A stretch of 45,349 bases of DNA from Vulcanimicrobiales bacterium (GCA_038244445.1 JBBRTL010000001.1:1-45349); one strand, 5' to 3'; counted from the first letter of the stretch, positions 3,660 through 31,800 are shown. Numbers and translations: made by a program. The notes: generated from the sequence alone by a model not told the origin.

Positions 3660-3661
3660 GC

Positions 3662-5876: not shown

Positions 5877-5980
5877 CGCAGGGGTCGGCACGAGACGGGC
5901 CCAACCCGAAGCCAATCCCTTCGAGACGCCGCTTCGCGGGCTCTTCGGGACAAGCTCATCAAAGGAATACGACGGTCGGA

Positions 5981-6799
5981 ATGACGCTTTTGCGCGGCAA
6001 AGGACTTGGTCTTGAAGTCGTCCTGACGGGGCGCGATTTCGACGAGGCCTTGGTCGAACTAGAAGAGCGCTTGGCCGCTCAGCCGGGGTTCTATCGCGGT
6101 TCCGATGCGGTCGTCGTCGGCGAAACCGAGCCCGACCACGAGCAGACCCAGCGTCTGCGCCGGGTCCTCGAGGTCGGCGGGATTGCATTCAAGGGCTTCA
6201 CCCCTGCCGCCGTCGTCGAAGGGGCCGAGCTTCAGCGTCGCCGGGCCATGCGCCCGCTCCGCGACGACGTCACCCTTTTGGACTCGGCGCGCTCGTTGGT
6301 CGCCGATTTTGCCGGGGCCCGGGCCGACATCGCTCAGCGCCGCCGCCGCGGTGAGGAATCCGTCCGTCGCGCCGACCTGGCCACCCGCCCTCCGGTCTCG
6401 GCTACCGCGCCGCCCGCGCTGACGGTCGTCGAGCCGCCGCCGAGTACGCATTACCACGTCGGCACCCTGCGGGGCGGCCAGTCGCTCCAGCAGGTCGGCA
6501 ACATCGTGGTCGTCGGCGATGTCAATCCGGGCGCCGAGTTGATCGCGAGCGGCGACATCGTCGTCTTCGGCCGCCTCGGCGGGGTCGCCCACGCCGGCGC
6601 CCAAGGTGATGCGACCGCCCGCGTCTACGCCCTCGACCTCTCGCCGACCCAGTTGCGGATCGCCTCGTGCATCGCGGCCGACACCGGCGAGCGAACCGAT
6701 CCGCCGGGACCCGAAGCGGCCTTCGTCCGCGACGGGCGGATTTTGGTCGCCGTCCTCGATAAACTTCCTCACCCCGAAGCCCAGGGAGCCCAAACTTAA
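5981..6799 (+). CDS. minC: septum site-determining protein MinC
   Basis: ATG 5981 (MTLLRGKGLGLEVVLTG...) with AAAGGAA upstream. C-terminal beta-helix signature ...LRGGQSLQQVGNIVVVGDVNPGAELIASGDIVVFGRLGGVAHAGAQGD.... TAA ends 1 nt before the minD ATG. Confidence 0.9.
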   Translation: MTLLRGKGLGLEVVLTGRDFDEALVELEERLAAQPGFYRGSDAVVVGETEPDHEQTQRLRRVLEVGGIAFKGFTPAAVVEGAELQRRRAMRPLRDDVTLLDSARSLVADFAGARADIAQRRRRGEESVRRADLATRPPVSATAPPALTVVEPPPSTHYHVGTLRGGQSLQQVGNIVVVGDVNPGAELIASGDIVVFGRLGGVAHAGAQGDATARVYALDLSPTQLRIASCIAADTGERTDPPGPEAAFVRDGRILVAVLDKLPHPEAQGAQT

Positions 6800-11599: not shown

Positions 11600-14443
11600 T
11601 TGTCTACCGAGATCCTGATCTCGAGCGACCCCTGGGAGAACCGGGTCGCCATTCTCGAAGACGGCGCGCTCGCCGAACTCTACATCGAACGCGAAGAAAA
11701 AGTCATCGGTTCGATCTACAAAGGAAAAGTCCAAAACGTCCTGCCCGGCATGGGTGCGGCGTTCGTCGACATCGGCCTGGGGCGCAATGCGTTCCTCTAC
11801 GTCGACGACATCAGCAAACAGCCGCTCAACATCGGCGACGTCGAGATCACCCAGGGCCGCAGCGGCTTCACGATCTCCGATAAGGCCAAACGCGGCGACG
11901 ACATCCTGGTCCAGATCGTCAAGGAGCCGCGCGGCCTCAAAGGTGCGCGCATCTCCACGAATATCTCGCTGCCGGGTCGTTACCTGATCCTGATGCCGAA
12001 CGGTCGCTTCTCGGGCGTCTCGCGCAAGGTCGAGTCCGCCACCGAGCGCGACCGCCTCAAGAACGTCATGAAGCGCATCCGCCCCGAAGGCATGGCGACC
12101 GTCGTCCGGACCGCCGCGACCGGCGTGAGCGAAGCGGAGCTGATCGCCGACCTCGGCGTGCTGATCCGCATGTGGCACGGCATCCTCGAGACGTACAAGC
12201 GCGCGGCTTCCCCGTCGCTCTTGCATAAGGACATGAACCTCGTCTACAAAGCGGCGCGCGATTTCATCACCGCCGATGTGGACAAGGTCCTGATCGACAA
12301 CGAGGAAGAGTACCAGAAAGTCCGCGCGTTCCTGCAACTGCTCGGCCCGCAATATCTCGATCGCGTCGAGTATTACAAGAACGGCGACACGCTCTTCGAC
12401 GACTACCACGTCAACGAAGATCTTGCGAAGCTGATGAAGTCCACCGTCAAGCTGCCCTCGGGCGGTTCGATCGTGATCGAGTCGACCGAAGCGCTGACCG
12501 TGATCGACGTCAACTCCGGCAAGTTCACCGGCGGCAAGAACCTCGAAGATACGATCACCAAGACGAACATCGAAGCCGCGGCGGAAGTCGCGCGTCAGGT
12601 CCGACTGCGCGATATCGGCGGCATCATCGTCGTCGACTTCATCGACATGTCGAGCGAAGCATCGCGCAACAAGGTCATCAAGATCCTCGAAGACGGTCTG
12701 CGCAAGGACCGCACGCGTTCGACCATCCAGTCGTTCTCGAACCTCGGCCTGCTCGAGTTCACTCGCAAGCGTATCGGCAAGGACCTGGGCGCGCAGCTGC
12801 GCGGCTCGTGTCCGACCTGCGCCGGCCTGGGCACCGTACTCTCGTCGCAGTCGGTCGCGATCGACACGTTGCGCCAGGTGCGCGAGATCGGCAAGAACGG
12901 CAAGCCGGTGGTGATCCACGCCGCCCCGACGGTCGCATCGCAGCTCGACTTCTGGTACGAAGACGAAACCGAAGCGCTCGCCAAAGAACTCTCGTGCGAG
13001 ATCCACGTGCGCGTCGATCCGATGATTCATCCGGAACGTTCGCGCGTCGAATCGGTCGCCTCGTTCAAGGAAAGCGTCGGCGAGACCGTGCGCGTCGGCG
13101 ACGAGCACACCGTCGAACTGCTCCACGGGCGTCTGCCCAACGCGACCTCGGCCGCCGCCGTCGTCGCCGGACACATCGTCGAAGTCGAGAACGCCGCGAA
13201 CAACACCGGTGGTTCGGCTCGCATCAAGATCATCGACGTCGACGACGCCGACGACTATGTGCTCGCCGAGATGCTGACCGCGGGCCTACCTGCGGCCAAA
13301 GCCGAGGCCGGCGCGAAACGCAAGCGTCGTCGCGGCGGACGCAAGGCGCCGCTCACGGCCGCCGAGCAGACCGCGCAGCTGCGCGAACTCGCCAAGGAAG
13401 CCTCGGAGTTCGCGTCCGCGCGTCCGCCGATCGGCATCACCGCGATCTCCGAAGAAGAAGAGGCGCTCGACAAGAAGCTCTCGGCCGAAGCCAAGGGCGA
13501 GCGTAGCCCGGATGCGATCGTGATCGTCGAAGGCGAAGCGCAACATCACGGTGACGAACCCGAACTCGACGCGAACGGCGAACCCCGCCGCCATCGTCGC
13601 CGTCGCGGACGCGGCGGACGCGGACGTGGTGGCGCGGCCGCCGCGGCCGGCTCGAACGAGCAGCAGCCGCAGCAACAACAACAGCCGCAGCGTCAACCGG
13701 TCCGCGCCCAAGCGGCGGCGCCGGCTCCGGTCACGGATGCCGACGACGATGACGATCGCGACGAAGACGAATCGACCCAATCCGCCACCGGCCAACCGGC
13801 CGAAGGCGAAGCCGGTCGTCGCCGCCGCCGCCGTCGCCGTCGCCGTGGACGCGGAGGTCGCGGTGGCGAGAACGGTGCGGCCACGGCCGAGCCGGGTTCG
13901 CAGCCGTCACCGGCGGTTCCGGACCGCCACATCTTCCGGGTCGGCTCGGCCGGCGATGCCGAGCCGACCGGACAGGTCGCGCCTCGCGAGCCCTCGCGAG
14001 CAATCGCGACCTTGCGTCGCGCCCACCCGCCGGCCGTCAACGCGCCGCCGCCGTCCTTGAAGGCGCCCGAGGAGTCGGTTCAGCCGACCAAGCCCGCCCG
14101 TCGCCGCCGCCCGGAACCAACTGGACCGGCCCCGGAACTTTCGGCCAAGCGGATCGCGGCTCTGCCGCCCGCCGCGCCCGAGCCCGCAGCCAAGCCGAAG
14201 TCGACGCTCAAGCGCGTCGCCCCGAAGGCGAAGGAGGCTGTCATCCCGAGCGTAGCTGCGCGTAGTCGAGGGACCGCCGCCAAGGAAGCTCCCGCCAAGA
14301 AAGTCGCGCCCGCAAAGAAAGCGACGCCGGTGAAAAAGGCGGCTCCGGTCAAAAAGGCCGCGCCTAAGAAGACCGCGGCGACTAAGGCTCCGGCGAAACG
14401 CAAGACCGGCAGTACGGTTGCAAGCTCGCGCAAGAAGAAGTAG
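11600..14443 (+). CDS. rne: ribonuclease E (RNase E/G catalytic N-terminal half plus long disordered C-terminal half)
   Basis: TTG start at 11600 with TAAGGT 10 nt upstream. S1 domain (IYKGKVQNVLPGMGAAFVDIGLGRNAFLYV), catalytic core (ALTVIDVNSGKF...GGIIVVDFIDM), and Zn-link CPTCAGLG. The C-terminal part (about 450 aa) is Arg-rich, acidic, poly-Q and then Lys/Ala/Pro repeats. Confidence 0.93.
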   Translation: MSTEILISSDPWENRVAILEDGALAELYIEREEKVIGSIYKGKVQNVLPGMGAAFVDIGLGRNAFLYVDDISKQPLNIGDVEITQGRSGFTISDKAKRGDDILVQIVKEPRGLKGARISTNISLPGRYLILMPNGRFSGVSRKVESATERDRLKNVMKRIRPEGMATVVRTAATGVSEAELIADLGVLIRMWHGILETYKRAASPSLLHKDMNLVYKAARDFITADVDKVLIDNEEEYQKVRAFLQLLGPQYLDRVEYYKNGDTLFDDYHVNEDLAKLMKSTVKLPSGGSIVIESTEALTVIDVNSGKFTGGKNLEDTITKTNIEAAAEVARQVRLRDIGGIIVVDFIDMSSEASRNKVIKILEDGLRKDRTRSTIQSFSNLGLLEFTRKRIGKDLGAQLRGSCPTCAGLGTVLSSQSVAIDTLRQVREIGKNGKPVVIHAAPTVASQLDFWYEDETEALAKELSCEIHVRVDPMIHPERSRVESVASFKESVGETVRVGDEHTVELLHGRLPNATSAAAVVAGHIVEVENAANNTGGSARIKIIDVDDADDYVLAEMLTAGLPAAKAEAGAKRKRRRGGRKAPLTAAEQTAQLRELAKEASEFASARPPIGITAISEEEEALDKKLSAEAKGERSPDAIVIVEGEAQHHGDEPELDANGEPRRHRRRRGRGGRGRGGAAAAAGSNEQQPQQQQQPQRQPVRAQAAAPAPVTDADDDDDRDEDESTQSATGQPAEGEAGRRRRRRRRRRGRGGRGGENGAATAEPGSQPSPAVPDRHIFRVGSAGDAEPTGQVAPREPSRAIATLRRAHPPAVNAPPPSLKAPEESVQPTKPARRRRPEPTGPAPELSAKRIAALPPAAPEPAAKPKSTLKRVAPKAKEAVIPSVAARSRGTAAKEAPAKKVAPAKKATPVKKAAPVKKAAPKKTAATKAPAKRKTGSTVASSRKKK

Positions 14444-14463: not shown

Positions 14464-14494
14464 GAAGGGCCCGGCAGTGATGCCGGGCCCTTTC
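14464..14494. terminator. bidirectional intrinsic-terminator-like hairpin between convergent rne and ctp genes
   Basis: GAAGGGCCCGGC (14464-14475), loop AGTGAT, GCCGGGCCCTTT (14482-14493). This gives an 11-bp perfect GC-rich stem plus a G-U pair, followed by TTTC. It lies in the 74-nt gap between the rne stop (14443) and the ctp stop (14518). Confidence 0.7.
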
Positions 14495-14517: not shown

Positions 14518-15900
14518 CTACTGGTTGGTGCCCGTCACCGACGCGGGCGTATTGATGCTGAGCTTCGCGAGACGACCGTTGATGAAATCGATCGCTCGCT
14601 GGAGCTGGGCGTCCCTTTTGGGATCGCCGATCACCGACTTGGCCGGTTCGTTGACGACGATGTCGGGTGTGATGCCCTTGTGATTGATGTCGTGGTTGTG
14701 CGGCGTCAGATAACGCGCGATCGTGACCTTGATGGCCGATCCATCCGGCATCGGCCAAACATTCTGCACGACGCCCTTGCCGAACGTGCGCGTACCGATC
14801 AGCGTGCCGGCGCCGTTGTCCTGGATGGCGCCCGACGTGATCTCCGATGCCGAAGCGGTGTGCCCGTTCACGAGCACCGCGAGCGGAAGCGGCGGGATCG
14901 CCGTGTCGTCGGCTTCATACGTGGTGATGTTCGAAGCGCGCTGTTCGACCGAGACGATCGGTCCGGCCGGGATGAACTTGGAACTGACCGAGACCGCCGC
15001 GGTCAGGTAGCCGCCGCCATTCTCGCGCAGGTCCATGATGATCGCCTGTGCGCCGTCGCGTTGCAGGCGGTCGAGTGCGGTCGCCATCTCGGTGGCGGTC
15101 TCGCTGCCGAAGACGCTCAACTGCACGTAGCCGATCTTGTTCGGCAGCATCCGTTCGTAGACGCTCAGCTGATGGATCTTCGCGCGCGTGATCGAGATCG
15201 GCGGCATGGTCGCGCCGTCGCGCTGCACGATCAGGACGACTTGCGTGCCCGCTTTGCCGCGCAGATGCGTGCTGGCTTTCTGGATCTCCATGCCCTTGGT
15301 CGAGACGCCGTCGATGCTGACGATGACGTCGTCCTGCTTCACGCCCGCCTTGTCGGCCGGACCGTCGGGGACGAGATTCGTCACGTCGATCATTTTGGTC
15401 GCGTCGTCTGCGGCGATCACGATGCCGGTCCCGCCGAAATCGCTGCCGTCGAGATCGCCGTTGAGCGCGGCGTACTCCTTGGGGTCGAGGAAGACCGTAT
15501 ACTTGTCGTGGACCGAACCGAGCATGCCGGAGATGGCGGCGTAGGCGAGTAGATGGGACGAGACTTTCGCCCCCGACTCTTTGGCGGCCGCGTCGACCGC
15601 GCGGTTCACCGCGCTGACGTTGCCCTGCGCGTCCAGACCGGCGTGGATCGGTGCGAGCGTCGGCGCTTTCACGCCCGAGTGCTTCATCATCAGGATCAGC
15701 GTGTCGTGCGCGCCGTCGAGAATCGCCTGCGGGTTCGTCTTCTTGTAGTAGTCCTGCGTGATGTGGCCGTAGGCGACCGCGATCTCTTCGGAATCGAGCG
15801 GTGCGACGCCGGCGGCTGCGACCGAGGATGCGGGCACTTGGAGAAACGTAAACGCGAGGGCCGCCGCAAGGGCGATCGAGAGCGGTCGCTTGGTATTCAT
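14518..15900 (-). CDS. ctpA: S41-family carboxy-terminal processing protease (copy B)
   Basis: 460 aa. Signal peptide, PDZ (GTGIVIAADD...VTNLVPDGPADKAGVKQDDVIVSIDG), catalytic region MDLRENGGGYL...VNGHTASASEI...GTRTFGKGVVQ. Confidence 0.9.
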   Translation of the reverse strand: MNTKRPLSIALAAALAFTFLQVPASSVAAAGVAPLDSEEIAVAYGHITQDYYKKTNPQAILDGAHDTLILMMKHSGVKAPTLAPIHAGLDAQGNVSAVNRAVDAAAKESGAKVSSHLLAYAAISGMLGSVHDKYTVFLDPKEYAALNGDLDGSDFGGTGIVIAADDATKMIDVTNLVPDGPADKAGVKQDDVIVSIDGVSTKGMEIQKASTHLRGKAGTQVVLIVQRDGATMPPISITRAKIHQLSVYERMLPNKIGYVQLSVFGSETATEMATALDRLQRDGAQAIIMDLRENGGGYLTAAVSVSSKFIPAGPIVSVEQRASNITTYEADDTAIPPLPLAVLVNGHTASASEITSGAIQDNGAGTLIGTRTFGKGVVQNVWPMPDGSAIKVTIARYLTPHNHDINHKGITPDIVVNEPAKSVIGDPKRDAQLQRAIDFINGRLAKLSINTPASVTGTNQ

Positions 15901-15907
15901 GATCTTC

Positions 15908-17296
15908 CTAACGAGCGAGTTGGGCTAAACGTGCCTCGGCGGCCTTGAGTTGTTTGTCGCGGGGTGTCCCGATCAGCGACGGGTCGTCGGCGTTCTGGTT
16001 CACCACGACGTCGGGGACGATGCCGCGGTGCTGGATGTCGCGACCCATCGGCGTGACGTAGCGCTGGGTCGTGATCTTGAGCGCGCCACCATCCGGCCAT
16101 TGGTAGATGCTCTGGACGACGCCCTTGCCGAAGGTGGTCGTCCCGACCAGCGTCGCCAGATGGTAGTCTTGCAACGCGCCCGAGGTGATCTCGGATGCCG
16201 ACGCGGTGTATTTGTTGACCAGGATCACGACCGGCTTGAGGCCGGCGATCTGGGTGCCGAGCGCGTCGTCGTCGACCCGGTCGCCGTCGCGCGAGATGGT
16301 CGAGACGATCGTGCCGCTCGGCACGAAGTAGCTCGAGATCTTCACGGCCGCATCGACCAATCCGCCGCCGTTGTTACGCAGATCGAGGATGTAGCCACGC
16401 ACGTCGTGCGCCCGTCCGTTGAGCAGCGCTTTTTTGACCTCGTCGGCCGAGGTGGTACCGAAGTCCGCCAAGCGGATGTATTCGTAGCCGTCCTTGATCT
16501 CGGCATGCACGGTCGGGACTTGGATGGTCTGGCGCACGATCGAATAGGACTTGTGCGACCCGGGCTTCTTGAACGGATACGTGTCGAGGCGGACGGTCGT
16601 GCCGACCTCGCCGCGGATCATCTGCTCGACGCGGTCCATCGTGAGGCCGGCGACCGGGGTCGCGTCGACCTTGGTGACGACTTCGCCGATCGTCATGCCG
16701 GCGTGCGACGCAGGCATCTCTTCGATCGGCTGCAGCACGACGCGCTTGTCGCGGAGCTGGAAGATGTAGACGCCGATGCCGCCGAAATTGCCGCCGTCGA
16801 GCGATTCGTTTAGGCTGCGATTCTCGCGCGGCGAGAGATAGACGGTGTAGGGATCGTTGACCGCGCCGAGCATGCCGCGCATGGCCGCTTCGGCGAGAAT
16901 GCTCGCGCCGTTCGGACCGAGCGCGCTTGCGTATTTGCGCTGCGCGTCGGCGAGCGTGAGCCCGGCCTCGGTGCCGTCACCGAGCTTCGCGTCTTCCGCG
17001 ACCGGACCGGCTTGTACGCTTGCGGCCTTGACGTGTCCCTTGAGCGCTGCCAGGATGCCGTCGCGCTCGCCGTTGACGAGCGTTTGCCCGCCGACCCGTT
17101 TGTAGTAGACGTGCTGAAGTTGTCGGAACGCAAGCGATGCGAGTTGCTCGCCGGCCGGCGTGGACTGTCGCGCGACGATCGGAATGCCGGTCGCATCCGC
17201 GGTTCTCGCGGAACGTAGGCTGATGGCGAAGGCGCCGGCCACGGCGACGACCGCCACGAGCAGGGCGGCGAAAAGAGCGCGAACGATAGGACTCAT
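15908..17296 (-). CDS. ctpA: S41-family carboxy-terminal processing protease (copy A)
   Basis: 462 aa. N-terminal TM/signal, PDZ (GGIGVYIFQL...EEMPASHAGMTIGEVVTKVDA), LDLRNNGGGLV...VNKYTASASEI...GTTTFGKGVVQ. It ends 7 nt before the start of copy B. Confidence 0.9.
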   Translation of the reverse strand: MSPIVRALFAALLVAVVAVAGAFAISLRSARTADATGIPIVARQSTPAGEQLASLAFRQLQHVYYKRVGGQTLVNGERDGILAALKGHVKAASVQAGPVAEDAKLGDGTEAGLTLADAQRKYASALGPNGASILAEAAMRGMLGAVNDPYTVYLSPRENRSLNESLDGGNFGGIGVYIFQLRDKRVVLQPIEEMPASHAGMTIGEVVTKVDATPVAGLTMDRVEQMIRGEVGTTVRLDTYPFKKPGSHKSYSIVRQTIQVPTVHAEIKDGYEYIRLADFGTTSADEVKKALLNGRAHDVRGYILDLRNNGGGLVDAAVKISSYFVPSGTIVSTISRDGDRVDDDALGTQIAGLKPVVILVNKYTASASEITSGALQDYHLATLVGTTTFGKGVVQSIYQWPDGGALKITTQRYVTPMGRDIQHRGIVPDVVVNQNADDPSLIGTPRDKQLKAAEARLAQLAR

Positions 17297-17378
17297 TGCG
17301 CCCTATACTACCCCCAAAACCTTAAGATCGTTACAGCCGCGACGGTTAGACCTGCGTTAAGGCTTTGGTCTTGGGCCG

Positions 17379-18587
17379 CTAATGCAGGAACGGCGAGGGG
17401 TCGATAGGTTTGCCGTGGCGCCGGACCTCGAAGTGGAGGTGCGGGCCGGTCGAGGCACCGGTACTTCCGGAGGCGGCGATCGCCTGGCCGCGCTGGACCT
17501 GCTGGCCGGCGGAGACATAAAAGGCCGAGAGATGGCCGTAGCCGGTCGAGATGCCGCCGCCGTGATCGATCAGGATGTAGTTCCCATAGCCGCCGTAGTA
17601 TTGTGCCATGATGACCGTGCCGCTAGCGGCCGCGACCACGGTCGTACCGCTACTGATCCCGATATCCAGTCCCGGGTGGAAGTCCGGCGCGCCGCCGAAC
17701 GGGTTACGGCGCATCCCGAAGGGCGACGTGATCGGGCCCGAAGCCGGCCACATCAGTTGGCTCGGTCCGCCCGAAGATGGCGGTGGGATAACGCCGGCGA
17801 TTCCGGCCGCACGCCGGGCCGCCTCGCGCTGCGCATCCAACTCGCGCTGGCGCTCTTGGATCAACGCTTCGAGGCGGGCCTCTTCGCCGGCCGTCAGGTT
17901 CTCGATCGTCGCGACTTGGGTCGCGACGCCGTGGCGCTGGACGTCGGCCATCACCACCAGGTTGGCGCGTTCTGCGGCAAGGCCCGCCAGTTGCGCCTTG
18001 GCGCGTTGCTGTTCGGCTTGCTGGGCCGCGAGCGCGATCTTGGTCTGCTGAAGCGAGGCCTGGACGCTTGCGACCTTCTTCTCGAGACTCTTGCGTTCGC
18101 GGACCGCGCGCTGATTGGCGACGATCAGCAGGCGCAGATCGGCCCAGCGCTCGACGAACTCGCTGAACGTATGCGCGCTCATGAGCACGTTGAGATAGCC
18201 GACGTCGCCATTCTCGTAGATCGCGACCAGACGACGCTTGAACGCGTCGTCGTGCAGGTGCAGAGACTTCTGCGCCGCGTTCAGCTGCAGGGTGTTCCAG
18301 TTCAGGCGCGCTTGGGTCGAACGTTCTTGCGCGTCGAGATCGCCGATGTGGGTGTTGACGACCGAGATCGCGCCGTTCGTCTGGTCGAGTTGGGCTTGCG
18401 CGTTGTAGACCTTGTCGGTAGCGGCGTGTAACTCGATCCGCTTCTGATGGAGTTGCGAGCGGAGCTTCTCGGCGCGCTGACGCTCCTGGAGGATCTTGTC
18501 GTGGAGCGTCGGCTTGGCCGGCTTCGCGAGCGCAAATGGCGTCGCGGAGAGGGCGATCAGCAGGGCCAGGGCGATGAGACGTTTCAC
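17379..18587 (-). CDS. coiled-coil M23 (LytM-domain) peptidase, EnvC/PcsB-like candidate FtsEX partner
   Basis: 402 aa with GTG start. Signal peptide, about 230 aa of heptad-rich Q/A/L/E sequence, and an M23 domain (FHPGLDIG...GNYILIDHGGGISTGYGHL...GPHLHFEVR). The GTG overlaps the upstream stop (GTGA). Confidence 0.9.
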   Translation of the reverse strand: MKRLIALALLIALSATPFALAKPAKPTLHDKILQERQRAEKLRSQLHQKRIELHAATDKVYNAQAQLDQTNGAISVVNTHIGDLDAQERSTQARLNWNTLQLNAAQKSLHLHDDAFKRRLVAIYENGDVGYLNVLMSAHTFSEFVERWADLRLLIVANQRAVRERKSLEKKVASVQASLQQTKIALAAQQAEQQRAKAQLAGLAAERANLVVMADVQRHGVATQVATIENLTAGEEARLEALIQERQRELDAQREAARRAAGIAGVIPPPSSGGPSQLMWPASGPITSPFGMRRNPFGGAPDFHPGLDIGISSGTTVVAAASGTVIMAQYYGGYGNYILIDHGGGISTGYGHLSAFYVSAGQQVQRGQAIAASGSTGASTGPHLHFEVRRHGKPIDPSPFLH

Positions 18588-19540
18588 GATTTGCGCTTTT
18601 CCTTGACGAAGACGGATCCGCCGATCGACTTCGCATAACGTTTGAGTTCGGCGGCGGCTTCGCCGACCTGGGCGTAGCTTTCGAACGGACGGTCCTCGTT
18701 CGAGAGCAGGGCGATCGAGATCGTCATGATCGGGAAACGGTTGAGCGTACCGCGTCTATCGCGCGTTTCGATATAACCCTGGCGGAGGTCCTGGGCGTTG
18801 TAGAGCGACCGGATCTCGACGTCGAAGGTAGCCACGATTTCGCGCGCCATCTCTTCTCCTCGATCCGGCACCGTGACCAGGATGAAGTCGTCGCCGCCGA
18901 TGTGCCCGACGAAGTCGCCCGCGGTGCCGCGCCGCCGGACCACGTCGACCGCGATGCCGGCGACCAGCTGGATCGCCTCGTCGCCGTGCACGAAGCCGTA
19001 GATATCGTTGAACGCTTTGAACGAATCGAGATCCAGATAGAGCAGCGAGAACGGCTTGCCGGATTCGATCCGGGCGCGCAACTCGACCTCGATCGCGAGA
19101 TTGCCCGGCAGTCGCGTGAGCGGAGAGAGCGAGGAGTCGGTCTCGACGCGCCGGATCTTGGCGCGCACGCGCGCGAGCAACTCCTGCCCGCCGAACGGTT
19201 TGGTGATGTAATCGTCGGCGCCGCTCTCGAAGCCTCGAAGCTTGTCTTCGGTCTCGCCCTTCGCGGTGACCATGATGATCGGAACGTGCGAGACGGTCGG
19301 GTTCGAATGCGCGCGGATGCGCTGCGCGACCTCGAAGCCATCCATGTACGGCATCATCACGTCGAGCAGGACCAGATCGACGGCGGACTGCTCGTCGAGG
19401 ATCTTGAGCCCGTCGGCACCGTTCGAGGCCGTCAGCACTTCGAAACCGCCAAGCTCCAGGTTGGTCGCGATGATCTGGCGCAGATTGCGGTCGTCGTCGA
19501 CGACCAGTACCCGCCGCGCGGTCTCCTCGAACTGCTTCAC
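18584..19540 (-). CDS. response regulator, REC domain fused to a GGDEF-type domain with GGDDF variant motif
   Basis: 318 aa from GTG 19540. REC (RVLVVDDD...DLVLLDVMMPYMDG...IIMVTAKG...YITKPF), then PLTRLPGN...LYLDLDSFKAFNDIYGFVHGDEAI...FVGHIGGDDFILV. The GTG overlaps the kinase stop (GTGA). Confidence 0.9.
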   Translation of the reverse strand: MKQFEETARRVLVVDDDRNLRQIIATNLELGGFEVLTASNGADGLKILDEQSAVDLVLLDVMMPYMDGFEVAQRIRAHSNPTVSHVPIIMVTAKGETEDKLRGFESGADDYITKPFGGQELLARVRAKIRRVETDSSLSPLTRLPGNLAIEVELRARIESGKPFSLLYLDLDSFKAFNDIYGFVHGDEAIQLVAGIAVDVVRRRGTAGDFVGHIGGDDFILVTVPDRGEEMAREIVATFDVEIRSLYNAQDLRQGYIETRDRRGTLNRFPIMTISIALLSNEDRPFESYAQVGEAAAELKRYAKSIGGSVFVKEKRKS

Positions 19541-20607
19541 GAGCGCGCCGGCAACGAGAGCGTGAAGGTGCTGCCGCGACCCGGCTCGGAGCGGACGTCG
19601 ATCGTGCCGCCATGGGCGCGCGCGAGGGCGCTTGCGATGAAGAGTCCGAGACCGCTGCCGTCCGAGACCGAAGCGAGCGCGTGGTCGGCCCGGTAGAAGC
19701 GGTCGAAAATATACGGAAGATGTTCGTCGGCGATGCCGATCCCGCGGTCCGCGACGGTCACGACGCAGCGGCCGTCGCGCCGTTCGCCGCGGATCTCGAT
19801 GATCTCGCCGGGAGCGGAGAACTTGGCCGCGTTCTCGATTACCTGCGCGAGCGCGTCGCGCAGCAGATCCGGATCGCCGGAGATCTCGATGCCGTCGGTA
19901 CGGCGGTCGATCGGGTGGAGTGACGCATCGAACGCGATCGCCGCCAGCGCCGCGTCGATCACGGCGTCGAGCGGGATCGTCTCGCGGCGTTTGAGCAGTT
20001 GTCCGGCTTCGACGCGCGAGACCAGCAACAGATCGTCGATCGCGCGCGCGAGCCGGTCGGCCTGTTCGCCCATCACGTCGAGATACTCGCGCGCCGCTTC
20101 GGGCGAAAGCGCGTGGTCGCGCAGCATCTCGACGTACGCCTTGATCGTCGCGAGCGGCGTCTTGAGTTCGTGCGAGATCGAACCGACCAGTTCGTTCTTG
20201 AGTTGTTCGATCTCTTCGAAGCGCTGTTGCGGCGCGAACGAGACCAGCCAGCCGTCGACCATTCCGCCGCGCACGATCGCGACCACCTGCGCGCGCGCCG
20301 GCGCGCGCCCGGAAGCACCGAAACTCCAGTGGACCGGATGCGCCGTGCCGTCGAGCGGAGTCGCTCGCAAGGTCTCCCAACCGCCGGGTACCAGCGCGTC
20401 GAGCCGGTTGCCGAGCGCGCGTTCGGCGGAGATCCCGCTGATCGTCTCGGCGGCGACGTTCCAGCGCGCGACCGTGCCGGCTGCATCGACGTGGGCGATG
20501 CCGTCGGCGGCGACGCCGAGGAGCGCGTCGAAGCGCGCTTTGGAGGCGACCAGCTCGTCGAGCAGGTCGGCGGTTACGTCCGGAGGTAGCGTCCGACCGA
20601 TATCCAC
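19537..20607 (-). CDS. cytoplasmic PAS-domain sensor histidine kinase (HisKA + HATPase_c)
   Basis: PAS-like (FDALLGVAADGIAHVDAAGTVARWNVAAETISG), H-box SISHELKTPLATI, N/G boxes (VIENAAKFS, DRGIGI, GSGLGLFIA). No TM segment. The start is uncertain: GTG 20607 (34-nt overlap with ftsX) or GTG 20697 (124-nt overlap). Confidence 0.88.
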   Translation of the reverse strand: MDIGRTLPPDVTADLLDELVASKARFDALLGVAADGIAHVDAAGTVARWNVAAETISGISAERALGNRLDALVPGGWETLRATPLDGTAHPVHWSFGASGRAPARAQVVAIVRGGMVDGWLVSFAPQQRFEEIEQLKNELVGSISHELKTPLATIKAYVEMLRDHALSPEAAREYLDVMGEQADRLARAIDDLLLVSRVEAGQLLKRRETIPLDAVIDAALAAIAFDASLHPIDRRTDGIEISGDPDLLRDALAQVIENAAKFSAPGEIIEIRGERRDGRCVVTVADRGIGIADEHLPYIFDRFYRADHALASVSDGSGLGLFIASALARAHGGTIDVRSEPGRGSTFTLSLPARS

Positions 20608-21455
20608 GAAGCGACCGCACCGACGACGGCACCGACCAGCAATAGTTCGAGCGCCATCGCGGTCCCGTCGATGTGCGCGTTGTTGAGCGAGAGCCACGAG
20701 AGGTTTTCGACCAAATGCGGCCAGACTGCGAGCTTGGCGACGGCGAGCAGGGCGAGCGCGACGAGCGCGCCCAGGATTCCGGCCAGGAGTCCCTCGCAGA
20801 TGAACGGCATACGGATGTAGGTGTTGGTCGCGCCGACCAACTGCATGATCGCGATCTCGCGGCGCCGCGCGAAGACGGTCAGCCGGATCGTGTTCGAGAT
20901 GATGATGCCGGCGACGACGATGAAGACCACGATCACGCCGATCCCGATCGAACGGAGCACGCTCCCGGCCTGCAAGAGACGCGCGACCAGGTCGGAGGCG
21001 AAGACCACGTTGCCGACGTTCGGAAGTCTCTGGATCGAGGCGGCGACGGCGGAGACGGTCTCCGGCGCCTTCACCTTCACGCGCAGCTTGTCCGGAAGCG
21101 GATTCTCCGTGAGCAGCGACATATCGATCGTCCCGCGGTTCTGGTTGCGGAAGTCCGCCAGGCCTTGCTTCTTCGAGACGAACGTGACCGAGAGCACGCG
21201 CGGGTCGGCGCGCAATGCGCTCTCGACGGTCGCGACCTGCGCGGGCGTGGCGTCGCCCGTCATGTAGGCGGAGATCTCGATCTGGTTGAGCACTTCGGTG
21301 CCGAGACCCGCGAGCGTCGCGCGCACGAACAGGAACGCACCGAGCAATACGATCGTCACCGCGACGGTTCCGATCGCGGTGATCTGCATAGCCGCGTTCC
21401 GCGTGAAGTTCCGGAGGACTTCACCCAGAAAGAATTTGGTCTTGCCCCAGTCCAA
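20574..21455 (-). CDS. ftsX: cell division ABC transporter permease-like protein FtsX
   Basis: 293 aa, TTG start. N-terminus LGEVLRNFTRNAAMQITAI, an extracellular loop domain, and C-terminal TM bundle ...RREIAIMQLVGATNTYIRMPFICEGLLAGILGA.... Confidence 0.92.
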   Translation of the reverse strand: MDWGKTKFFLGEVLRNFTRNAAMQITAIGTVAVTIVLLGAFLFVRATLAGLGTEVLNQIEISAYMTGDATPAQVATVESALRADPRVLSVTFVSKKQGLADFRNQNRGTIDMSLLTENPLPDKLRVKVKAPETVSAVAASIQRLPNVGNVVFASDLVARLLQAGSVLRSIGIGVIVVFIVVAGIIISNTIRLTVFARRREIAIMQLVGATNTYIRMPFICEGLLAGILGALVALALLAVAKLAVWPHLVENLSWLSLNNAHIDGTAMALELLLVGAVVGAVASWISVGRYLRT

Positions 21456-22131
21456 GGTAATAGTAGCCCCGTTCTTCGTCGGTGACCACGCGGCCGTCTT
21501 CCATGCGCACGACGCGGCGGCGCATGCGATCGACGACCGCTTGGTTGTGCGTGGCGACGACCACGGTCGTGCCTTTGAGATTGATCCGCTGCAGCAGTTC
21601 CATGATCTCGGTCGTCGTGGTCGGATCGAGATTGCCGGTCGGTTCGTCGCAGAGCAGCAGTTTCGGATTGTTGACGAGCGCGCGCGCGATCGCGGTACGT
21701 TGCTGTTCGCCGCCCGAGAGTTCGCCCGGATACATCCGGCTCTTGTGCGCGAGCCCGACCAGATCGAGCGCGCGCGGGACCTGGCGACCGACGTCTTTGC
21801 TGTGCGCGCCGGTCACCTGCATCGCGAACGCGACGTTCTCCCAGACGGTCTTCTCGGAGAGCAATTTGTAGTCCTGAAAGACGACGCCGAGGTGGCGGCG
21901 GAGCGCCGGGATGCGGCTGCGACGCAGGCGATCGACGCGGATGCCATCGACGGTGATATCGCCGCCCGTCGGGCCCATCTCGCGGTAGAGCAGACGTAGG
22001 AGACTCGTCTTGCCGGTGCCCGAATGGCCGACCAAAAAGACGAACTCGCCCTTCCCGATCTCGAGGCTGACGTTGTCGAGGGCGCGCGTCCCGTTGGGGT
22101 AAGCGAGCGAGACGTTCCGAAGGGAAATCAT
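21421..22131 (-). CDS. ftsE: cell division ATP-binding protein FtsE
   Basis: 236 aa. Walker A GHSGTGKTS, signature LSGGEQQR, Walker B LLLCDEPTGNLD. The 3' end overlaps the ftsX start by 35 nt. Confidence 0.95.
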   Translation of the reverse strand: MISLRNVSLAYPNGTRALDNVSLEIGKGEFVFLVGHSGTGKTSLLRLLYREMGPTGGDITVDGIRVDRLRRSRIPALRRHLGVVFQDYKLLSEKTVWENVAFAMQVTGAHSKDVGRQVPRALDLVGLAHKSRMYPGELSGGEQQRTAIARALVNNPKLLLCDEPTGNLDPTTTTEIMELLQRINLKGTTVVVATHNQAVVDRMRRRVVRMEDGRVVTDEERGYYYLGLGQDQILSG

Positions 22132-22175
22132 TCCGAAAGGGTTTTTCCGGGACCTCGGACCTATACCTGTTGGCG

Positions 22176-25446: not shown

Positions 25447-26634
25447 CTAGGCGCTCTCTTCGTGTCCGCCGAGCGGAAGTTGTTGCGTGCGGGCGATCCG
25501 CGCGGTCGGCTTCTGAACCGCGTCGAGAGCGGTGATCGCGCGGGCGGTCGTATCGATCACGCCGATCTCCGGCAGATCGTCGTCCGAGAGAGCGGCCTCG
25601 TCCTTGAGCTTGCGGCCCTGCGGCAGTAACCGCGTCTCGTACGAACCGACTGCGCCGTTGAACGACTCGACCGTGCGCTCGAGATTCTTGCGCACGCCGG
25701 TCAGGTGCTCCGCGAACTTCAACGCCCGGTCGTAGAGTTCGCGACCGATCGAAGCGATCCGTTTGGCGTTCTCTTCTTGGCGGACGGCCTGCCAGCCCAT
25801 CGCAAACGAACGTAGCAACGAGATAAGCGCAAGCGGTCCGGTGACCAGCACGCCCTTGTCGAGCGCGTACTCGATCAGCATCGGATTCTCGTTGCAGGCG
25901 GCGCTCAAGAACGATTCGCCGGGCACGAACATGATCACGAAGTCGGCCGAGCCTTCGGCGCTCTGATAGTTGCGCTTCGCAAGCGCGTCGACGTGCTCTT
26001 GGAGCGTCTTGGCGTATTGCTTGACGAGGGCTTTGCGCGTGTCGTCGTCGTGCGCGTCGAGGGCGGTCTGCAGCGCATCGACCGGCGCCTTCGAATCGAC
26101 GAAGACGCGCCGGTCGTCCGGCAGGTTGACGGTCATATCGGGTCGAGCTTTGCCGGACTCGAGCGAGATCGTCTGCTGTTCGGCGAAGTCGCAGTGCATC
26201 TGCATGCCGGCCTTCTCGACCACGTTGCGCAGCTGCATCTCGCCCCACTTGCCGCGCGTCGTCGGATTGCGCAGGGCAGTGACGAGAGTAACGGTCTGGG
26301 TGGTCAAGCTGGTGGTTGCGGTCTCGAGTTTCTCGGTCCGCGTCAGCAGGCTCGAGAGCTGTTCGCGCAGACTTCCCGCATCGGTCGCGCGCAACGTCTC
26401 GAGTTTCGAGACGAGCGCGTTGAACTCGGCGAGCTGTTTGCTGACCGGATCGACCAGGTTGCCGACCTTCTCGCTCGCGCGCGCGGCGGCGGTATCGCCA
26501 AGCTCGTTCTTGGCGCGTTCGACCAGCGCCTCGAGCGCGTGCGTCTGCGCCTGCGAACGCGGTGCGGCGATCGCCCACGCGACGGCGGCCCCGACGATCA
26601 GACCGATCGACAGCGCGACCAGGATCGCGGTCAT
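25447..26634 (-). CDS. rmuC: DNA recombination protein RmuC
   Basis: 395 aa from ATG 26634. N-terminal TM, coiled coil, then ...RNPTTRGKWGEMQLRNVVE...PDMTVNLPDDRRVFVDSKAP...DFVIMFVPGESF.... The ATG overlaps the upstream stop (ATGA). Confidence 0.9.
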   Translation of the reverse strand: MTAILVALSIGLIVGAAVAWAIAAPRSQAQTHALEALVERAKNELGDTAAARASEKVGNLVDPVSKQLAEFNALVSKLETLRATDAGSLREQLSSLLTRTEKLETATTSLTTQTVTLVTALRNPTTRGKWGEMQLRNVVEKAGMQMHCDFAEQQTISLESGKARPDMTVNLPDDRRVFVDSKAPVDALQTALDAHDDDTRKALVKQYAKTLQEHVDALAKRNYQSAEGSADFVIMFVPGESFLSAACNENPMLIEYALDKGVLVTGPLALISLLRSFAMGWQAVRQEENAKRIASIGRELYDRALKFAEHLTGVRKNLERTVESFNGAVGSYETRLLPQGRKLKDEAALSDDDLPEIGVIDTTARAITALDAVQKPTARIARTQQLPLGGHEESA

Positions 26635-27491
26635 GCCGGCGCTCCGACGTATGTGCGGAAGAAGCCGACCGTGCGAACCCAAGCGTCTTCGGCGGCGGAC
26701 GCTACGTACGCGGAGCGCTGATCGTCGAAGAACGCATGTCCGGCTTCGGGATAGATCTTGATGTCGTGCGGGACCGTCAATGCATGCCCGAATGCGAGTA
26801 CGTCTTCCGACGGGATCGAGGTATCGCGGCCACCGTAGCTGCCGCAGATCGGCACGCCGACCTTGACGGGATCGATATCTTCTACGGCCCCGTAGAACGG
26901 CGCGGCGGCGGCGAAGATATCGGCGTTCGCGATCGTCTGTTGCAGCACGAGCGTGCCGCCCATGCAGAACCCGGTTATGCCGATCTTGGCGAGCGGGCGC
27001 GCGACCTGACACCAGAGCGCGGCGGCGCGCAGGTCGCCCGCGACCTTCGCGGGCACGAGCGTTTTTGCGAACGGGCGGAAGATGGAGACGTCGCTCACGC
27101 CGTCGCCCGACGGTTCGTTCCCGCGCGCGTAGAGATCCGGCGCGATCGCGACGTAGCCCAGACGTGCGTAGCGGCGGACGACGTCGCGGATCGAGGTATC
27201 GACGCCCCAGATGTGCATGGTCACGACGATCGCGGGCGTGGTGACGGTCGCGCGCTTGGGCCAGGCCGCGTAGGCGGGCAGTTCGATATCCGGTCGGCGC
27301 AACCTCAGGCGCTGCGTCTGGATCGACGGATCGTTCTCGGCGACCAGCGGCGGATGGGTCGTGCCGAGGTCCGCGCCGGTCGCACGGCCGCCGGCGGCGA
27401 GGCCGGCAGCGGCTGCGGCCGAGAGTCCGACGAAGGTGCGCCGGTCGAAGCCCGGGTTGGTGGAGCGCGTCGGGTCGATCTCGTCTGCCAC
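26631..27491 (-). CDS. Tat-exported dienelactone hydrolase family protein
   Basis: GTG 27491 with GAGGA 7 nt upstream. Twin-arginine signal FDRRTFVGLSAAAAAGLAAG, nucleophile motif GFCMGG, and PEAGHAF near the C-terminus. Confidence 0.85.
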   Translation of the reverse strand: MADEIDPTRSTNPGFDRRTFVGLSAAAAAGLAAGGRATGADLGTTHPPLVAENDPSIQTQRLRLRRPDIELPAYAAWPKRATVTTPAIVVTMHIWGVDTSIRDVVRRYARLGYVAIAPDLYARGNEPSGDGVSDVSIFRPFAKTLVPAKVAGDLRAAALWCQVARPLAKIGITGFCMGGTLVLQQTIANADIFAAAAPFYGAVEDIDPVKVGVPICGSYGGRDTSIPSEDVLAFGHALTVPHDIKIYPEAGHAFFDDQRSAYVASAAEDAWVRTVGFFRTYVGAPA

Positions 27492-27737
27492 AGTAGTGTC
27501 CTCGCCCCTCTCTTCGCGCTTCGAGCGCCCGTTCCGGCAGGTTTGCGGGCGCGATGCCGCGCAGGCCCGCGTATGCGGACAGAACGTCTGACCCTCGTCA
27601 TCGGTCTCGCGTTCGCGGCCGTCGCCGCGCTCGACGATCCGGCGGCATTGCCGGCCGGCCACGATCTGATCGAGAACACCCACGCTAAGAACCGCGCGGT
27701 CTCGTTTCCGTCGCAGCCGGCCTCGTTCTTCTAGCGC

Positions 27738-28861: not shown

Positions 28862-31800
28862 GTGTCGGACACGACGGTCAGCGTCACCCTTCCCGAGATG
28901 GGCGAATCGGTCAGCGAAGGCTCGATCGTCGAGTGGCGTAAGAAGGTCGGCGATTTCGTGGCCGAGGGTGACACGCTGGTCGACGTGACCACCGACAAGG
29001 TCGACGTCGAAGTGCCCGCGACCGCCTCCGGCGTGATCGCCAAGATCCTCGCGGGCGAAGGCCAGACGGTCGCGGTCGGCGCAGCGCTTGCCGAGATCAC
29101 CGTGTCGAGCAATGGCGCCGTCCCCGCGCCGGCAGGGCCGGCCGCGCCGTCGGGACCGCCGCGGTTGGTCGACGTGACGCTGCCCGAGATGGGCGAGTCG
29201 GTGACCGAAGGCTCGATCGTGCAGTTCCGCGTCAAGGCCGGTGACTTCGTGAACGCAGGCGACACGATCGTCGACGTGACGACCGATAAGGTCGACGTCG
29301 AAGTGCCCGCGCCCGAGAGCGGCGTCGTCACCGAGATCAGCGCGAAGGAGGGCGACACGATCGCCGTCGGCACGAAGTTGGCGGTGTTAGATGCGTCCCT
29401 CGACTCTGGTCGCGTTGCTCTCGACGCTCGGGATGACATGGAAAGTAAGGCGGTCGCTGCGGCTCCCGCGGTGACGCAGCAGAGCGTTCCGCAGCGTGCT
29501 TCCGGTGAGGTGGTGGCTTCGCAGCCGGCGCGTCGGATGGCGGGGAAACTGGATATCGATCTCGGGTTCGTACGCGGGAGCGGTCCGAACGGACTGATCT
29601 TGCGTAACGACGTCACGTCGCAGGCTTCGCAGGCGAAGCGCACGCACGGCGCTGCGGCGCAGCCGCAACCGCCGCTGGCGGCCGGCGCGAAGCTTACGAC
29701 GCTCAAGGGTCCGGCGGCAGCGCTTGCGGCCTACATGGAACAGAGCCTGACGATCCCGACCGCGACCTCGTTCCGCACGCTCTCGGTCGACGTGCTCGAC
29801 GCACGTCGCAAAGAACTCAACGGCGCGATCAAAGCGGCCGGACGCGGCGAGAAGATCTCGTTCACCCATATCATCGCGTTCGCGCTCGCGCAAGCGGCCC
29901 GCGAGTTACCGTCTATCACCAACTCGTTCCGGCGCGAGAACGGCCAGCCGACGCGCGTCGAACCGGGCGTACATCTCGGCATCGCGGTCGACACCGAACG
30001 CAAAGACGGCTCGCGCTTCCTGATGGTTCCGGTCATCAAGAACGCCGGCGACCTGGACTTCGTGCAGTTCCGCCTCGAGTACGAAGCCTTGATCGCCAAG
30101 GCGCGCGAGAACAAACTCACCGCCGACGATCTGCAAGGCGCGTCGTTCACGCTCACCAATCCGGGCGGCATCGGCACGGTCGCGTCGGTCCCGCGGCTGA
30201 CGGCCGGCCAGGGCGCGATCATCGCGGTCGGCGCGCTCGGCTATCCGCCGGGCTTCTCGGGTGCGAACGAACAGGCGCTCCGCTCGCTCGGCATCAGCAA
30301 GATCATGCAGATGACGAACACCTACGATCATCGCGTGATCCAAGGCGCGCAGTCGGGCGAGTATCTCCGTCGCGTCGACGATCTCTTGCACGGCAAGGAC
30401 GGCTTCTACGAAAACGTCTTCGCCGCGTTCGGCCTGGAAGCGGCCGCATCGCCGCACGTCGCAACCGCCGCACCGAGCGTCGCCGGTAGTGCGCAAGCCG
30501 CGCCTTCCGATGAGATGCTCCGCGCCGTCGCCGCCGGTATGGCGATCGTCGCGGCCTATCGCACGTACGGCCATCTGGCGGCGAATCTCGATCCGCTCGG
30601 ATCGAAACCGCCGGGCGATCCATCGCTCGAACCGGCGACCTGGGGCCTCACGCCCGCCTTACAGAGCGCGATTCCGGCCTCGGTTCTGCGCGTCAAAGTT
30701 CCGGGCAACACGCTCGCCGAGGTGCTGCCGCGCCTCAAAGAGACGTACGCCTCCACGATCGCCTACGAAGTCGAGCACATCTCCGATACCCAGCAACGCG
30801 AATGGCTGCGCGACCATATCGAAGCGGGTCGCCATCAAGTCGCGCTCTCGCGCGATCGCCAGGTCGAGTTCTTGCAGCGCCTGACGCGCGTCGAAGTGCT
30901 GGAGCGCTTTCTGCGCAAGAACTTCCTCGGCGCCAAGACGTTCTCGGGCGAAGGCCTCGACGTGATGGTTCCGATGCTCGAGGAGACGCTTGAGATGCTC
31001 TCCGCCGAGGGCGTGCAGTGCGCCGTGATCGGCATGGCGCATCGCGGCCGCCTGAACGTGATCGCACACGTCGTCAACAGCCCGTACGAAGAGATCCTCG
31101 GCGAGTTCGAGGCGGCCCACCGTCGCGGCGAAGGTGTCGGCGACGACGACGTGACCGGCGACGTGAAGTACCACCACGGCGCGAGCGGCGTCTATCAACT
31201 CGCCAACGGCAAGACCATCAGGGTCCGGCTCGCGCACAACCCGAGCCACCTCGAAGCGGTCGATCCGGTGGTCGAAGGTCGCGCCCGCGCGCTCCAGACC
31301 GATCATTCCACCGGCGTACCGACGACCGACGTGAAGAAAGCTGCACCGATCCTGATCCACGGCGACGCGGCGTTCACCGGCCAAGGCATCATCTCGGAGG
31401 TCTTGAACCTGCAGTCGCTACCGGGCTACACGACCGGCGGCACCCTGCACGTCATCGCGAACAACCAGATCGGTTTCACGACCGATAGCGGCGACAGTCG
31501 CTCGACGCGCTATGCCTCGGATCTCGCCAAGGGATTCGACGTACCCATCATCCACGTCAACGCCGACGACGTCGACGCCTGCATTTCGGCCGTCCATCTC
31601 GCGATGGAGTTCCGCAAGCAGTTCCAGCGCGACGTGCTGATCGACTTGATCGGCTATCGCCGCCTCGGTCACAACGAACAGGACGAGCCGGCCTACACGC
31701 AACCCTCGATGTACGACAAGATCAAGACGCATCCGAGCGCGCGCGAACTCTTCGCGAACAAGCTGATCGCGCAAGGCATCGTGACGGCCGATCAGTCGAA

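Follow-up and report, generated by a model that had tools for sequence, protein, structure and literature searches.

We analysed a 45,349-nt stretch of DNA from a Vulcanimicrobiales bacterium (GCA_038244445.1 JBBRTL010000001.1:1-45349; hereafter the window), in which seven consecutive genes, all on the minus strand between positions 14518 and 22131, encode FtsE and FtsX, a histidine kinase, a response regulator, an M23 peptidase and two Ctp proteases. The central observation is that a receiver-GGDDF regulator, with or without its kinase, lies between ftsX and the hydrolase gene, an arrangement conserved across the phylum Eremiobacterota. An open reading frame (ORF) listing and translation gave the following features:

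21421..22131, minus strand: ftsE, 236 aa, ATP-binding cassette (ABC) ATPase of FtsEX, with TIGR02673 and ABC_tran matches
20574..21455, minus strand: ftsX, 293 aa, TTG start, permease-like with an extracellular domain; PF18075, PF02687 and NF038347 matches
19537..20607, minus strand: soluble PhoR/WalK-like histidine kinase, 356 aa from the GTG at 20607 (alternative GTG at 20697)
18584..19540, minus strand: response regulator, 318 aa, with a receiver (D60), a helical linker and a variant GGDEF-fold domain (motif GHIGGDDF)
17379..18587, minus strand: coiled-coil M23 (LytM-type) metallopeptidase, 402 aa, secreted; CC_PcsB and Peptidase_M23 matches
15908..17296, minus strand: ctp paralogue 1, 462 aa, S41 and PDZ, with an N-terminal membrane anchor
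14518..15900, minus strand: ctp paralogue 2, 460 aa, S41 and PDZ, with a signal peptide
17297..17378, minus strand: spacer between the M23 gene and ctp1, 82 nt, the only sizeable gap in the operon
14465..14492, minus strand: intrinsic-terminator-like hairpin, 12 bp with 9 G-C pairs and a T-run, 25 nt past the ctp2 stop
22132..22175, no strand assigned: short divergent spacer between ftsE and an oppositely oriented acyl-CoA dehydrogenase gene

All seven ORFs were found in the order and at the coordinates given by a first-pass annotation of the window, and Pfam and NCBIfam searches confirmed their domains. Recomputed from coordinates and sequence, ftsE and ftsX overlap by 35 nt, and ftsX and the kinase gene by 34 nt, or by 124 nt if the upstream GTG is used; GTGA is common to the kinase and regulator genes at 19537-19540 and to the regulator and M23 genes at 18584-18587, and gaps of 82 and 7 nt precede ctp1 and ctp2, every figure agreeing exactly with that annotation. 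No internal terminator of any strength was found inside the operon, the sole strong hairpin being the one 3' of ctp2, between the convergent ctp2 and RNase E/G genes. Because the overlaps are chained, internal terminators are lacking and one terminator follows ctp2, the seven genes are supported as a single tightly coupled operon, along which G+C content is uniform; the stoichiometric co-expression put forward in the first-pass annotation, and a wiring of septal hydrolysis to phosphorylation or a cyclic dinucleotide, are possible extensions of this reading. A search of 13.5-23.5 kb, including the spacer upstream of ftsE, returned no consensus sigma-70 promoter, an absence that tells little in this phylum. 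By position, the promoter of the operon must be within 22132-22175 or inside the divergent acyl-CoA dehydrogenase gene. The 82-nt spacer, which has no consensus promoter, terminator or Rfam match, is the only plausible site in the operon for an internal promoter or ribosome-binding site. An Rfam search of the operon revealed no riboswitch for cyclic diguanylate (c-di-GMP) or any other ligand, its isrO match being the terminator hairpin, at a score below threshold. The RNase E/G homologue converging on ctp2 (window 11600-14443, plus strand, 947 aa) ends in a low-complexity C-terminal tail of ~450 aa that is rich in Arg, Lys, Pro and Ala, and the hairpin at 14465-14492 is likely a bidirectional terminator for both genes.

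FtsE matches TIGR02673 over its full length (NCBIfam; 295 bits against a cutoff of 264.85 bits) and is 84-97% identical across related loci. In FtsX, Pfam detects the extracellular domain FtsX_ECD (PF18075, 73 bits) and PF02687 (48 bits), and the N-terminus MDWGK..NFTRNA is kept in relatives, which fixes both the TTG start and the 35-nt overlap with ftsE. The same 35-nt overlap is kept in essentially all of the loci surveyed below. The best-scoring FtsX model is NCBI's Gram-positive-type NF038347, which is passed (245 bits against a cutoff of 225 bits). The association with Gram-positive-type lineages suggested for the gene order beforehand does not hold for this lineage, which is diderm, an outer membrane being present in the cultured representative (PMC9758169). 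The M23 protein has a signal peptide (translation) and matches CC_PcsB (PF24568; 34 bits, cutoff 27 bits) and Peptidase_M23 (122 bits); it aligns over its full length to the EnvC model NF008644, at a score below that model's cutoff, and its zinc ligands are intact, HxxxD reading HPGLD and HxH reading HLH. In characterised systems the FtsX extracellular domain binds coiled-coil partners, and the M23 protein is presumed to be an FtsX-activated peptidoglycan hydrolase. Both Ctp paralogues have PDZ matches and the Ser and Lys motifs TASASE and FGKG; ctp1 and ctp2 score 176 and 186 bits for Peptidase_S41, and 280 and 303 bits for TIGR00225 (cutoff 218.6 bits). The tandem pair is kept in nearly all related loci.

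The kinase, in which every catalytic box is present, combines HisKA (69 bits) and HATPase_c (94 bits; Pfam) with the H-box SHELKTPL, and neither a transmembrane segment nor a membrane or periplasmic sensor was found in it. Residues 22-351 align end to end with the PhoR model TIGR02966, and the WalK model matches at E = 1e-52. Of its previous description as a soluble PAS kinase, the solubility and the HisKA/HATPase_c core stand; the PAS match is sub-threshold (19.7 bits against a cutoff of 22.6 bits), and the domain is absent at three related loci. At these loci (L128:8894-9589, and also L129 and L131), the kinase is only ~231 aa long and consists of the DHp and catalytic domain, the PAS-like N-terminus having been lost, and the start of the regulator gene is still overlapped. 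The GTG at 20607 is the supported start of the kinase in the window, since conservation with relatives begins at VD(I/S)(G/S)RTLP and runs onward from there. When present, the kinase is always encoded immediately after ftsX. Kinase and regulator carry the hallmarks of a two-component system, namely an H-box with HATPase_c in the one and a receiver with a phospho-acceptor Asp in the other, and we infer that they form a cognate phosphotransfer pair. In a closed genome whose locus has the regulator only, a stand-alone PAS protein of 125 aa (L164:4837-5214) is encoded upstream of ftsE, beyond the divergent acyl-CoA dehydrogenase gene.

The regulator consists of a receiver domain (REC, 108 bits) and a GGDEF domain (53 bits against a cutoff of 23.8 bits), the latter matching Pfam profile positions 5-101 of 161 only. 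Its AlphaFold2 model has a mean predicted local distance difference test (pLDDT) score of 92.6, and the best Foldseek matches of this model are WspR (3bre), DgcR (6zxm) and PleD, the top matches all being diguanylate cyclases (E = 1e-23 to 1e-20). Searching with a C-terminal domain profile likewise brought up diguanylate cyclases only, and these align only over the first ~110 positions (100-110). The receiver and the GGDEF fold of the REC-GGDEF protein recognised in the first-pass annotation are therefore both present, and only the motif departs from that label, reading GGDDF instead of the canonical [G/A/S]G[D/E]E[F/Y]. In an alignment of 23 members of the regulator's subfamily (alignment A1), receiver residues D60 and K114 and the DD pair are conserved, GG-D-F is invariant, and the fourth motif position is Asp (D218) in at least 90% of the sequences; H[IVL]GGDDF occurs in 117 of 150 family representatives. 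On the evidence of these alignments, GGDDF is a family signature and not random decay.

The equivalents of PleD D327, K332, N335, D344 and K442 are invariant across phyla (alignment A1; HMMER alignment to PleD). Among them, D170, N178 and D187, at metal-binding Asp and guanine-specific positions, align to D327, N335 and D344; K442 (K304 here) and R446 are mapped by motif comparison with PleD. GTP is the predicted substrate, because D187 is kept at the base-specificity position. Invariance at the substrate and metal positions, together with phosphate and catalytic replacements that are shared family-wide, is what we read as the mark of a functional enzyme whose chemistry is somewhat altered, rather than as decay. 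Degenerate GGDEF motifs are typically inactive (PMC8835794); Geobacter sulfurreducens GSU1937, which has a GGDDF motif, is active in vivo (PMC8835794). The regulator scores 160 bits with the PleD family model NF007135, against a cutoff of 474 bits, and has a single receiver, not the REC-REC-GGDEF architecture. A Cas10 or mCpol-type GGDD palm was also considered and rejected, as it was represented by one stray Pfam match (E = 0.074) on a relative, and the sequence and fold matches in the PDB were all to diguanylate cyclases.

A HMMER search with the regulator against 1.84 billion cluster representatives (clusters at 50% identity) returned 6133 clusters at E < 1e-30, a count that includes generic REC-GGDEF proteins; the best 150 of these 6133 clusters match over nearly the full length at 31-65% identity. 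The members of this set stand by themselves, carry additional receiver domains or form the ends of hybrid kinases. Their shared motifs in alignment A1 are NPLTxLPGN, D-x-D-x-FK-x-x-ND-x-YG and GH(I/V)GGDDF, together with a ~15-residue insert (Y...D...GYI...DR.G....FP) followed by AK...GS and a DRR tail. The subfamily is large and sharply conserved, with a chemistry that is, as far as we can see, uncharacterised. At one regulator-only locus (L160:8793-9757), GHVGGDDF is kept and most of the family insert (GYI...DR.G) is apparently absent. A scan of genome contigs, a sample and not a census, with no Eremiobacterota among the matches listed, found at least 25 family members in other phyla, including Actinomycetota, Gemmatimonadota, Chloroflexota, Clostridia, Omnitrophota, Dormibacterota, Desulfobacterota and others. 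Among the matches listed, most have no adjacent kinase and are thus usually orphans, and their contexts vary, with rpe/ribD in Actinomycetota and alpha-2-macroglobulin, T2SSE, RecG or panB elsewhere. The Actinomycetota, including Salinispora, carry the orphan regulator, with no kinase adjacent, in the conserved block priA-def-fmt-rsmB-rpe-[regulator]-ribD-ribE-ribBA-ribH-infC (for example L003:10010-10939; likewise L002, L005, L006 and L008).

The source organism belongs to the Eremiobacterota, and the names attached to close regulator homologues (71-97% identity) are Candidatus Eremiobacterota, Baltobacteraceae or Vulcanimicrobiaceae. The same gene order appears in four further assemblies or metagenome-assembled genomes, one of them from the Vulcanimicrobiaceae with both kinase and regulator; where flanks are present, they are the divergent acyl-CoA dehydrogenase gene on the upstream side and RNase E/G on the downstream side. 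That this order is found in independent genomes at only 42-90% protein identity, and that the overlaps described below recur, exceeds what chance would give. For a wider survey, metagenome contigs were scanned with an FtsX alignment, so that the sampling was not anchored on the regulator. The entry point was two Eremiobacterota-type FtsX peptides and the metagenome loci carry no taxonomy, so the survey has no bearing on other phyla. It comprised 80 loci (FtsX identity 54-80%), of which 69 could be classified by what follows ftsX, the types being assigned from tblastn matches:

Type A, ftsE-ftsX-kinase-regulator-M23-ctp-ctp: 27 loci, plus 6 ending inside the kinase gene
Type C, ftsE-ftsX-regulator-M23-ctp-ctp, without the kinase: 14 loci
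Type B, ftsE-ftsX-M23-ctp-ctp: 20 loci
Type D, ftsX-ctp: 2 loci
Unclassified, contig too short: 11 loci

A regulator or kinase gene occupies the 3' junction of ftsX in 47 of the 69 classifiable loci. The embedded two-component pair proposed in the first-pass annotation, which had suggested such a survey of ftsX neighbourhoods, is widespread in relatives (33/69 loci); the conserved partner of FtsEX-M23, however, is the regulator and not the pair, as it stands alone in 14/69 loci and in a closed 3.89-Mb genome of type C with identical flanks. Relatives of the regulator of this closed genome are named Baltobacteraceae or Candidatus Lustribacter. In a tally that picks the start nearest -4, and is therefore biased towards overlaps, -4/-1 overlaps appear at nearly every junction in all locus types (ftsX-regulator, kinase-regulator, regulator-M23 and ftsX-M23), and the 4-nt kinase/regulator overlap is kept in 27 of 31 type A loci. 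In type B loci the M23 gene is directly coupled to ftsX. Median identities to the window in type A loci are 88% for FtsE, 73% for the regulator, 63% for FtsX, 61% for M23, 55-63% for Ctp and 46% for the kinase, which makes the regulator the second most conserved protein of the operon, after FtsE, and the kinase the least conserved. Two individual loci, L135 and L147, have ctp directly after ftsX with no M23 gene between them, which points to loss or relocation as possible fates of the hydrolase gene too. At another (L083:12100-13179), the gene next to the second ctp on its downstream side specifies a GAF-GGDEF protein, which gives the locus two genes of c-di-GMP type; ftsE is uncalled in the source annotation of L083, where tblastn finds an 87%-identical partial FtsE, maybe reflecting a frameshift or an assembly error.

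Neighbour-joining trees, computed without support values, were used to trace the history of the module. In the regulator family tree, the FtsEX-linked regulators form one clade apart from the members in other phyla, with type C branching basally and type A nested within; the tree of FtsE and FtsX is broadly alike, type B loci being scattered through it. The kinase-regulator pair has been inherited vertically across lineages whose FtsX identity falls to 59% and kinase identity to 42%. Because the regulator-only loci branch basally, the regulator appears to have been recruited before the kinase. In the simplest history, the regulator probably arrived at the ftsX-M23 junction early in the phylum and the kinase probably joined it there later, after which the module would have been lost several times. 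A recent insertion was considered and rejected, given the uniform G+C content of the operon and the vertical inheritance; the refuting condition set in the first-pass annotation, a pair missing from all relatives and bearing signs of recent insertion, thus does not hold.

The interpretation we favour, with about even confidence, is that the operon represents an Eremiobacterota-specific elaboration of an FtsEX/M23/Ctp operon, in which a recruited REC-GGDDF regulator, joined later by its cognate kinase in the window's subclade, tunes or reports the activation of the M23 peptidase. The kinase would autophosphorylate on its H-box histidine in response to a cytoplasmic signal or to the state of FtsE/FtsX, and would pass the phosphoryl group to D60 of the regulator. 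Phosphorylation would promote dimerisation, as in WspR and DgcR, and switch on the GGDDF nucleotidyl-cyclase domain, which would most likely use GTP to make c-di-GMP or a related nucleotide. A nucleotide signal made alongside FtsEX could then tune or report the ATP-driven step in which the FtsX extracellular domain activates the M23 endopeptidase. The two Ctp proteases might trim, process or degrade the hydrolase, much as CtpA acts on MepM and Prc on MepS. Vulcanimicrobium, the cultured relative, is diderm and grows as rods or filaments 1.5-92 µm long (PMC9758169), a morphology compatible with regulated cell separation.

Several observations weigh against this interpretation. We infer the functional coupling of regulator and kinase to FtsEX-M23 from one kind of evidence, the conserved and translationally coupled gene order. 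A crude search of crown-group loci for FtsE/FtsX positions constrained only where the regulator is present yielded one conservative column, FtsE 211 (E versus D/Q), and Pfam and Rfam searches of the operon found no c-di-GMP receptor domain or riboswitch. In the regulator itself, PleD R366 is replaced by an invariant His (H213), E371 by Asp, and R446 is absent (the GRN Arg being G/S); the RxxD I-site is also absent, the corresponding positions reading TAGD in the window, with no Arg there in the family (alignment A1). These changes make the activity and the product uncertain. Moreover, 22 of the 69 loci couple ftsX directly to M23 or ctp, and since both genes are lacking from them, FtsEX-M23 works without the module, which is an optional accessory and not part of the core. 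Finally, among the matches listed, none of the 25 members in other phyla has ftsE, ftsX, M23 or ctp nearby. Because those members are unlinked to ftsEX and mostly kinase-less, the FtsEX link is, judging from these contexts, a lineage-specific recruitment of a widespread orphan regulator.

The direction of signalling could also be the reverse, with the kinase reading the ATPase or conformational state of FtsE/FtsX and the regulator emitting a cell-wide signal of division or wall hydrolysis instead of controlling the hydrolase. The absence of a membrane or periplasmic sensor from the kinase, its best full-length match being PhoR, and its invariable position directly after ftsX all agree with such wiring and make it attractive, as do the shortened, PAS-less kinases (~231 aa) of L128, L129 and L131, whose input must come from a partner protein because they have no PAS domain. 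However, regulator-only loci are common and basal, which means that the association began without a kinase encoded at the locus, and no FtsE/FtsX residues convincingly track the presence of the module; we consider this reversal unlikely, although it ranks first among the alternatives. Ranking after it, and improbable in our view, is a non-catalytic adaptor, in which the GGDDF domain would only bind a nucleotide (GTP or c-di-GMP) or a protein, and phosphorylation would control binding of the regulator to FtsE/FtsX or the divisome. The domain can be likened to degenerate GGDEF receptors and localisation factors, its Arg366 position being His, its Glu371 position Asp and its Arg446 missing, and with only the N-terminal 100-110 positions aligning to diguanylate cyclases or the Pfam GGDEF profile. 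Non-catalytic GGDEF domains, however, normally lose their motif, whereas in this family little or no variation is seen at the metal, base and GGDD positions across many phyla and architectures; in addition, the GGDDF enzyme GSU1937 is active, and the regulator lacks an I-site through which c-di-GMP could be bound.

Nor does the regulator need to act on FtsEX at all if, with its kinase, it is unrelated to FtsEX-M23 and merely expressed through a constitutive, growth-coupled operon. Its absence from a third of the related loci, and the occurrence of the family elsewhere in housekeeping contexts unlinked to ftsEX, such as rpe/ribD in Actinomycetota, would be expected of such a passenger. A neutral passenger should move or decay, however, and this one has held its place between ftsX and the hydrolase gene in spite of divergence down to 54% identity in FtsX and 44-52% in the regulator. 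The 4-nt overlap recurs at each of its two junctions, and it was at this very site that the kinase came in; we place this possibility behind the adaptor and regard it as improbable too. That the two genes are spurious ORFs of a 65% G+C genome, or that their overlaps stem from wrongly chosen starts, has a negligible probability. Such a genome does contain many long alternative-frame ORFs, including one of 682 aa running through the kinase and regulator genes, but both proteins have strong domain matches and hundreds of close homologues, and in other assemblies these genes, overlaps included, were called independently, so that homology and synteny already refute an artefact. A more far-reaching proposal, which we regard as a long shot and less probable than all of these except the artefact, is that REC-GGDDF proteins are distinct nucleotide-signal synthases with a product other than c-di-GMP, and that in Eremiobacterota this product, or the phosphorylated regulator itself, directly gates the FtsE ATPase. 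The different product is proposed because of the three family-invariant substitutions and the conserved insert; if true, direct gating would place both a type VII ABC mechanotransmitter and the cleavage of septal peptidoglycan under a second messenger, as a feature built into the operon.

Compared with characterised FtsEX systems, namely those with EnvC (E. coli), PcsB (S. pneumoniae), RipC (M. tuberculosis) and CwlO (B. subtilis), the operon shares FtsE, a PF18075 FtsX and a secreted coiled-coil partner. EnvC is degenerate, and the genes for FtsEX partners are unlinked in model organisms; here the partner is a catalytically intact M23 peptidase of the same operon, and the receiver-GGDDF regulator, with or without the kinase, is encoded between ftsX and the hydrolase gene. 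The regulator has the fold and domain order of WspR (3bre), DgcR (6zxm) and PleD (1w25), with the conserved phospho-acceptor Asp and equivalents of D327, K332, N335, D344 and K442. It differs from them in its ~23% identity, in GH(I/V)GGDDF instead of R-x-GG(D/E)EF, in the lack of an RxxD I-site and of an Arg446 equivalent, and in the ~15-residue family insert (Y..D...GYI...DR.G) and DRR tail. It shares the fourth-position Asp with the Hypr GGDEF enzyme GSU1937, which, however, is membrane-anchored, has Ser at the base-specificity position and makes cyclic GMP-AMP (cGAMP), whereas the regulator has D187 there, a receiver as input and belongs to another subfamily.

Kinases without an extracytoplasmic sensor beside an ABC system are likewise found in BceAB-BceRS and PstSCAB-PhoU-PhoR, an analogy in which BceS reads the FtsX-family transporter BceAB and PhoR reads PstB through PhoU; in the present operon, however, the kinase is not an intramembrane protein but a soluble one, the regulator lacks a DNA-binding output, and the genes lie inside the ABC operon instead of adjacent to it. 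The WalRK (VicRK) system of Firmicutes has a PAS kinase related to this one and provides a two-component link to the FtsEX-dependent hydrolases pcsB, cwlO and lytE, but WalR is transcriptional, WalK is membrane-bound, and both are unlinked to ftsEX, in contrast to the GGDEF-type output and same-operon linkage described here. In P. aeruginosa, CtpA-LbcA acts on the M23 enzyme MepM, and in E. coli Prc-NlpI acts on MepS. The Ctp proteins are S41 PDZ proteases as in those systems, and here they are encoded with an M23 endopeptidase; they differ in being two tandem paralogues with no adaptor lipoprotein evident, and their substrate relation to the hydrolase is suggested by those systems.

FtsEX-hydrolase modules, REC-GGDEF cyclases, WalRK control of FtsEX-dependent hydrolases and Ctp control of hydrolases are all already known. 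What is new is the presence, across a phylum, of a receiver-GGDDF regulator encoded between ftsX and the hydrolase gene, either alone or accompanied by a kinase, as well as the recognition of this regulator as a member of a large, sharply conserved and apparently uncharacterised GGDEF subfamily. The statement of the first-pass annotation that no FtsEX system with an embedded two-component pair had been described agrees with our searches of the open-access literature, which found no description of the regulator, alone or with the kinase, at this position; the paper on V. alpinus (PMC9758169) makes no mention of Fts or c-di-GMP. In model organisms it is an open question how the cytoplasm turns FtsEX-driven wall hydrolysis on and off, and the regulator is a concrete candidate for this role. 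The existence of a cultured phylum member that forms rods and filaments means that the predicted mutant phenotype, altered separation or filamentation, can be checked. The finding also draws attention to a REC-GGDDF family with an altered active site, the chemistry of which is apparently unstudied.

Elsewhere in the window, a 1172-aa ORF (2670-6188, minus strand) has no Pfam match at E <= 1e-5 and could be either a novel large protein or a spurious ORF of high G+C content; further long ORFs without matches lie at 41887-43185, 33966-35420 and 26562-27734. A 1406-aa ORF (28862-33082, plus strand) joins two lipoyl domains, an E3-binding domain and an E2 acyltransferase core to a complete 2-oxoglutarate dehydrogenase E1, a fusion that resembles OdhA/Kgd yet carries lipoyl domains besides.

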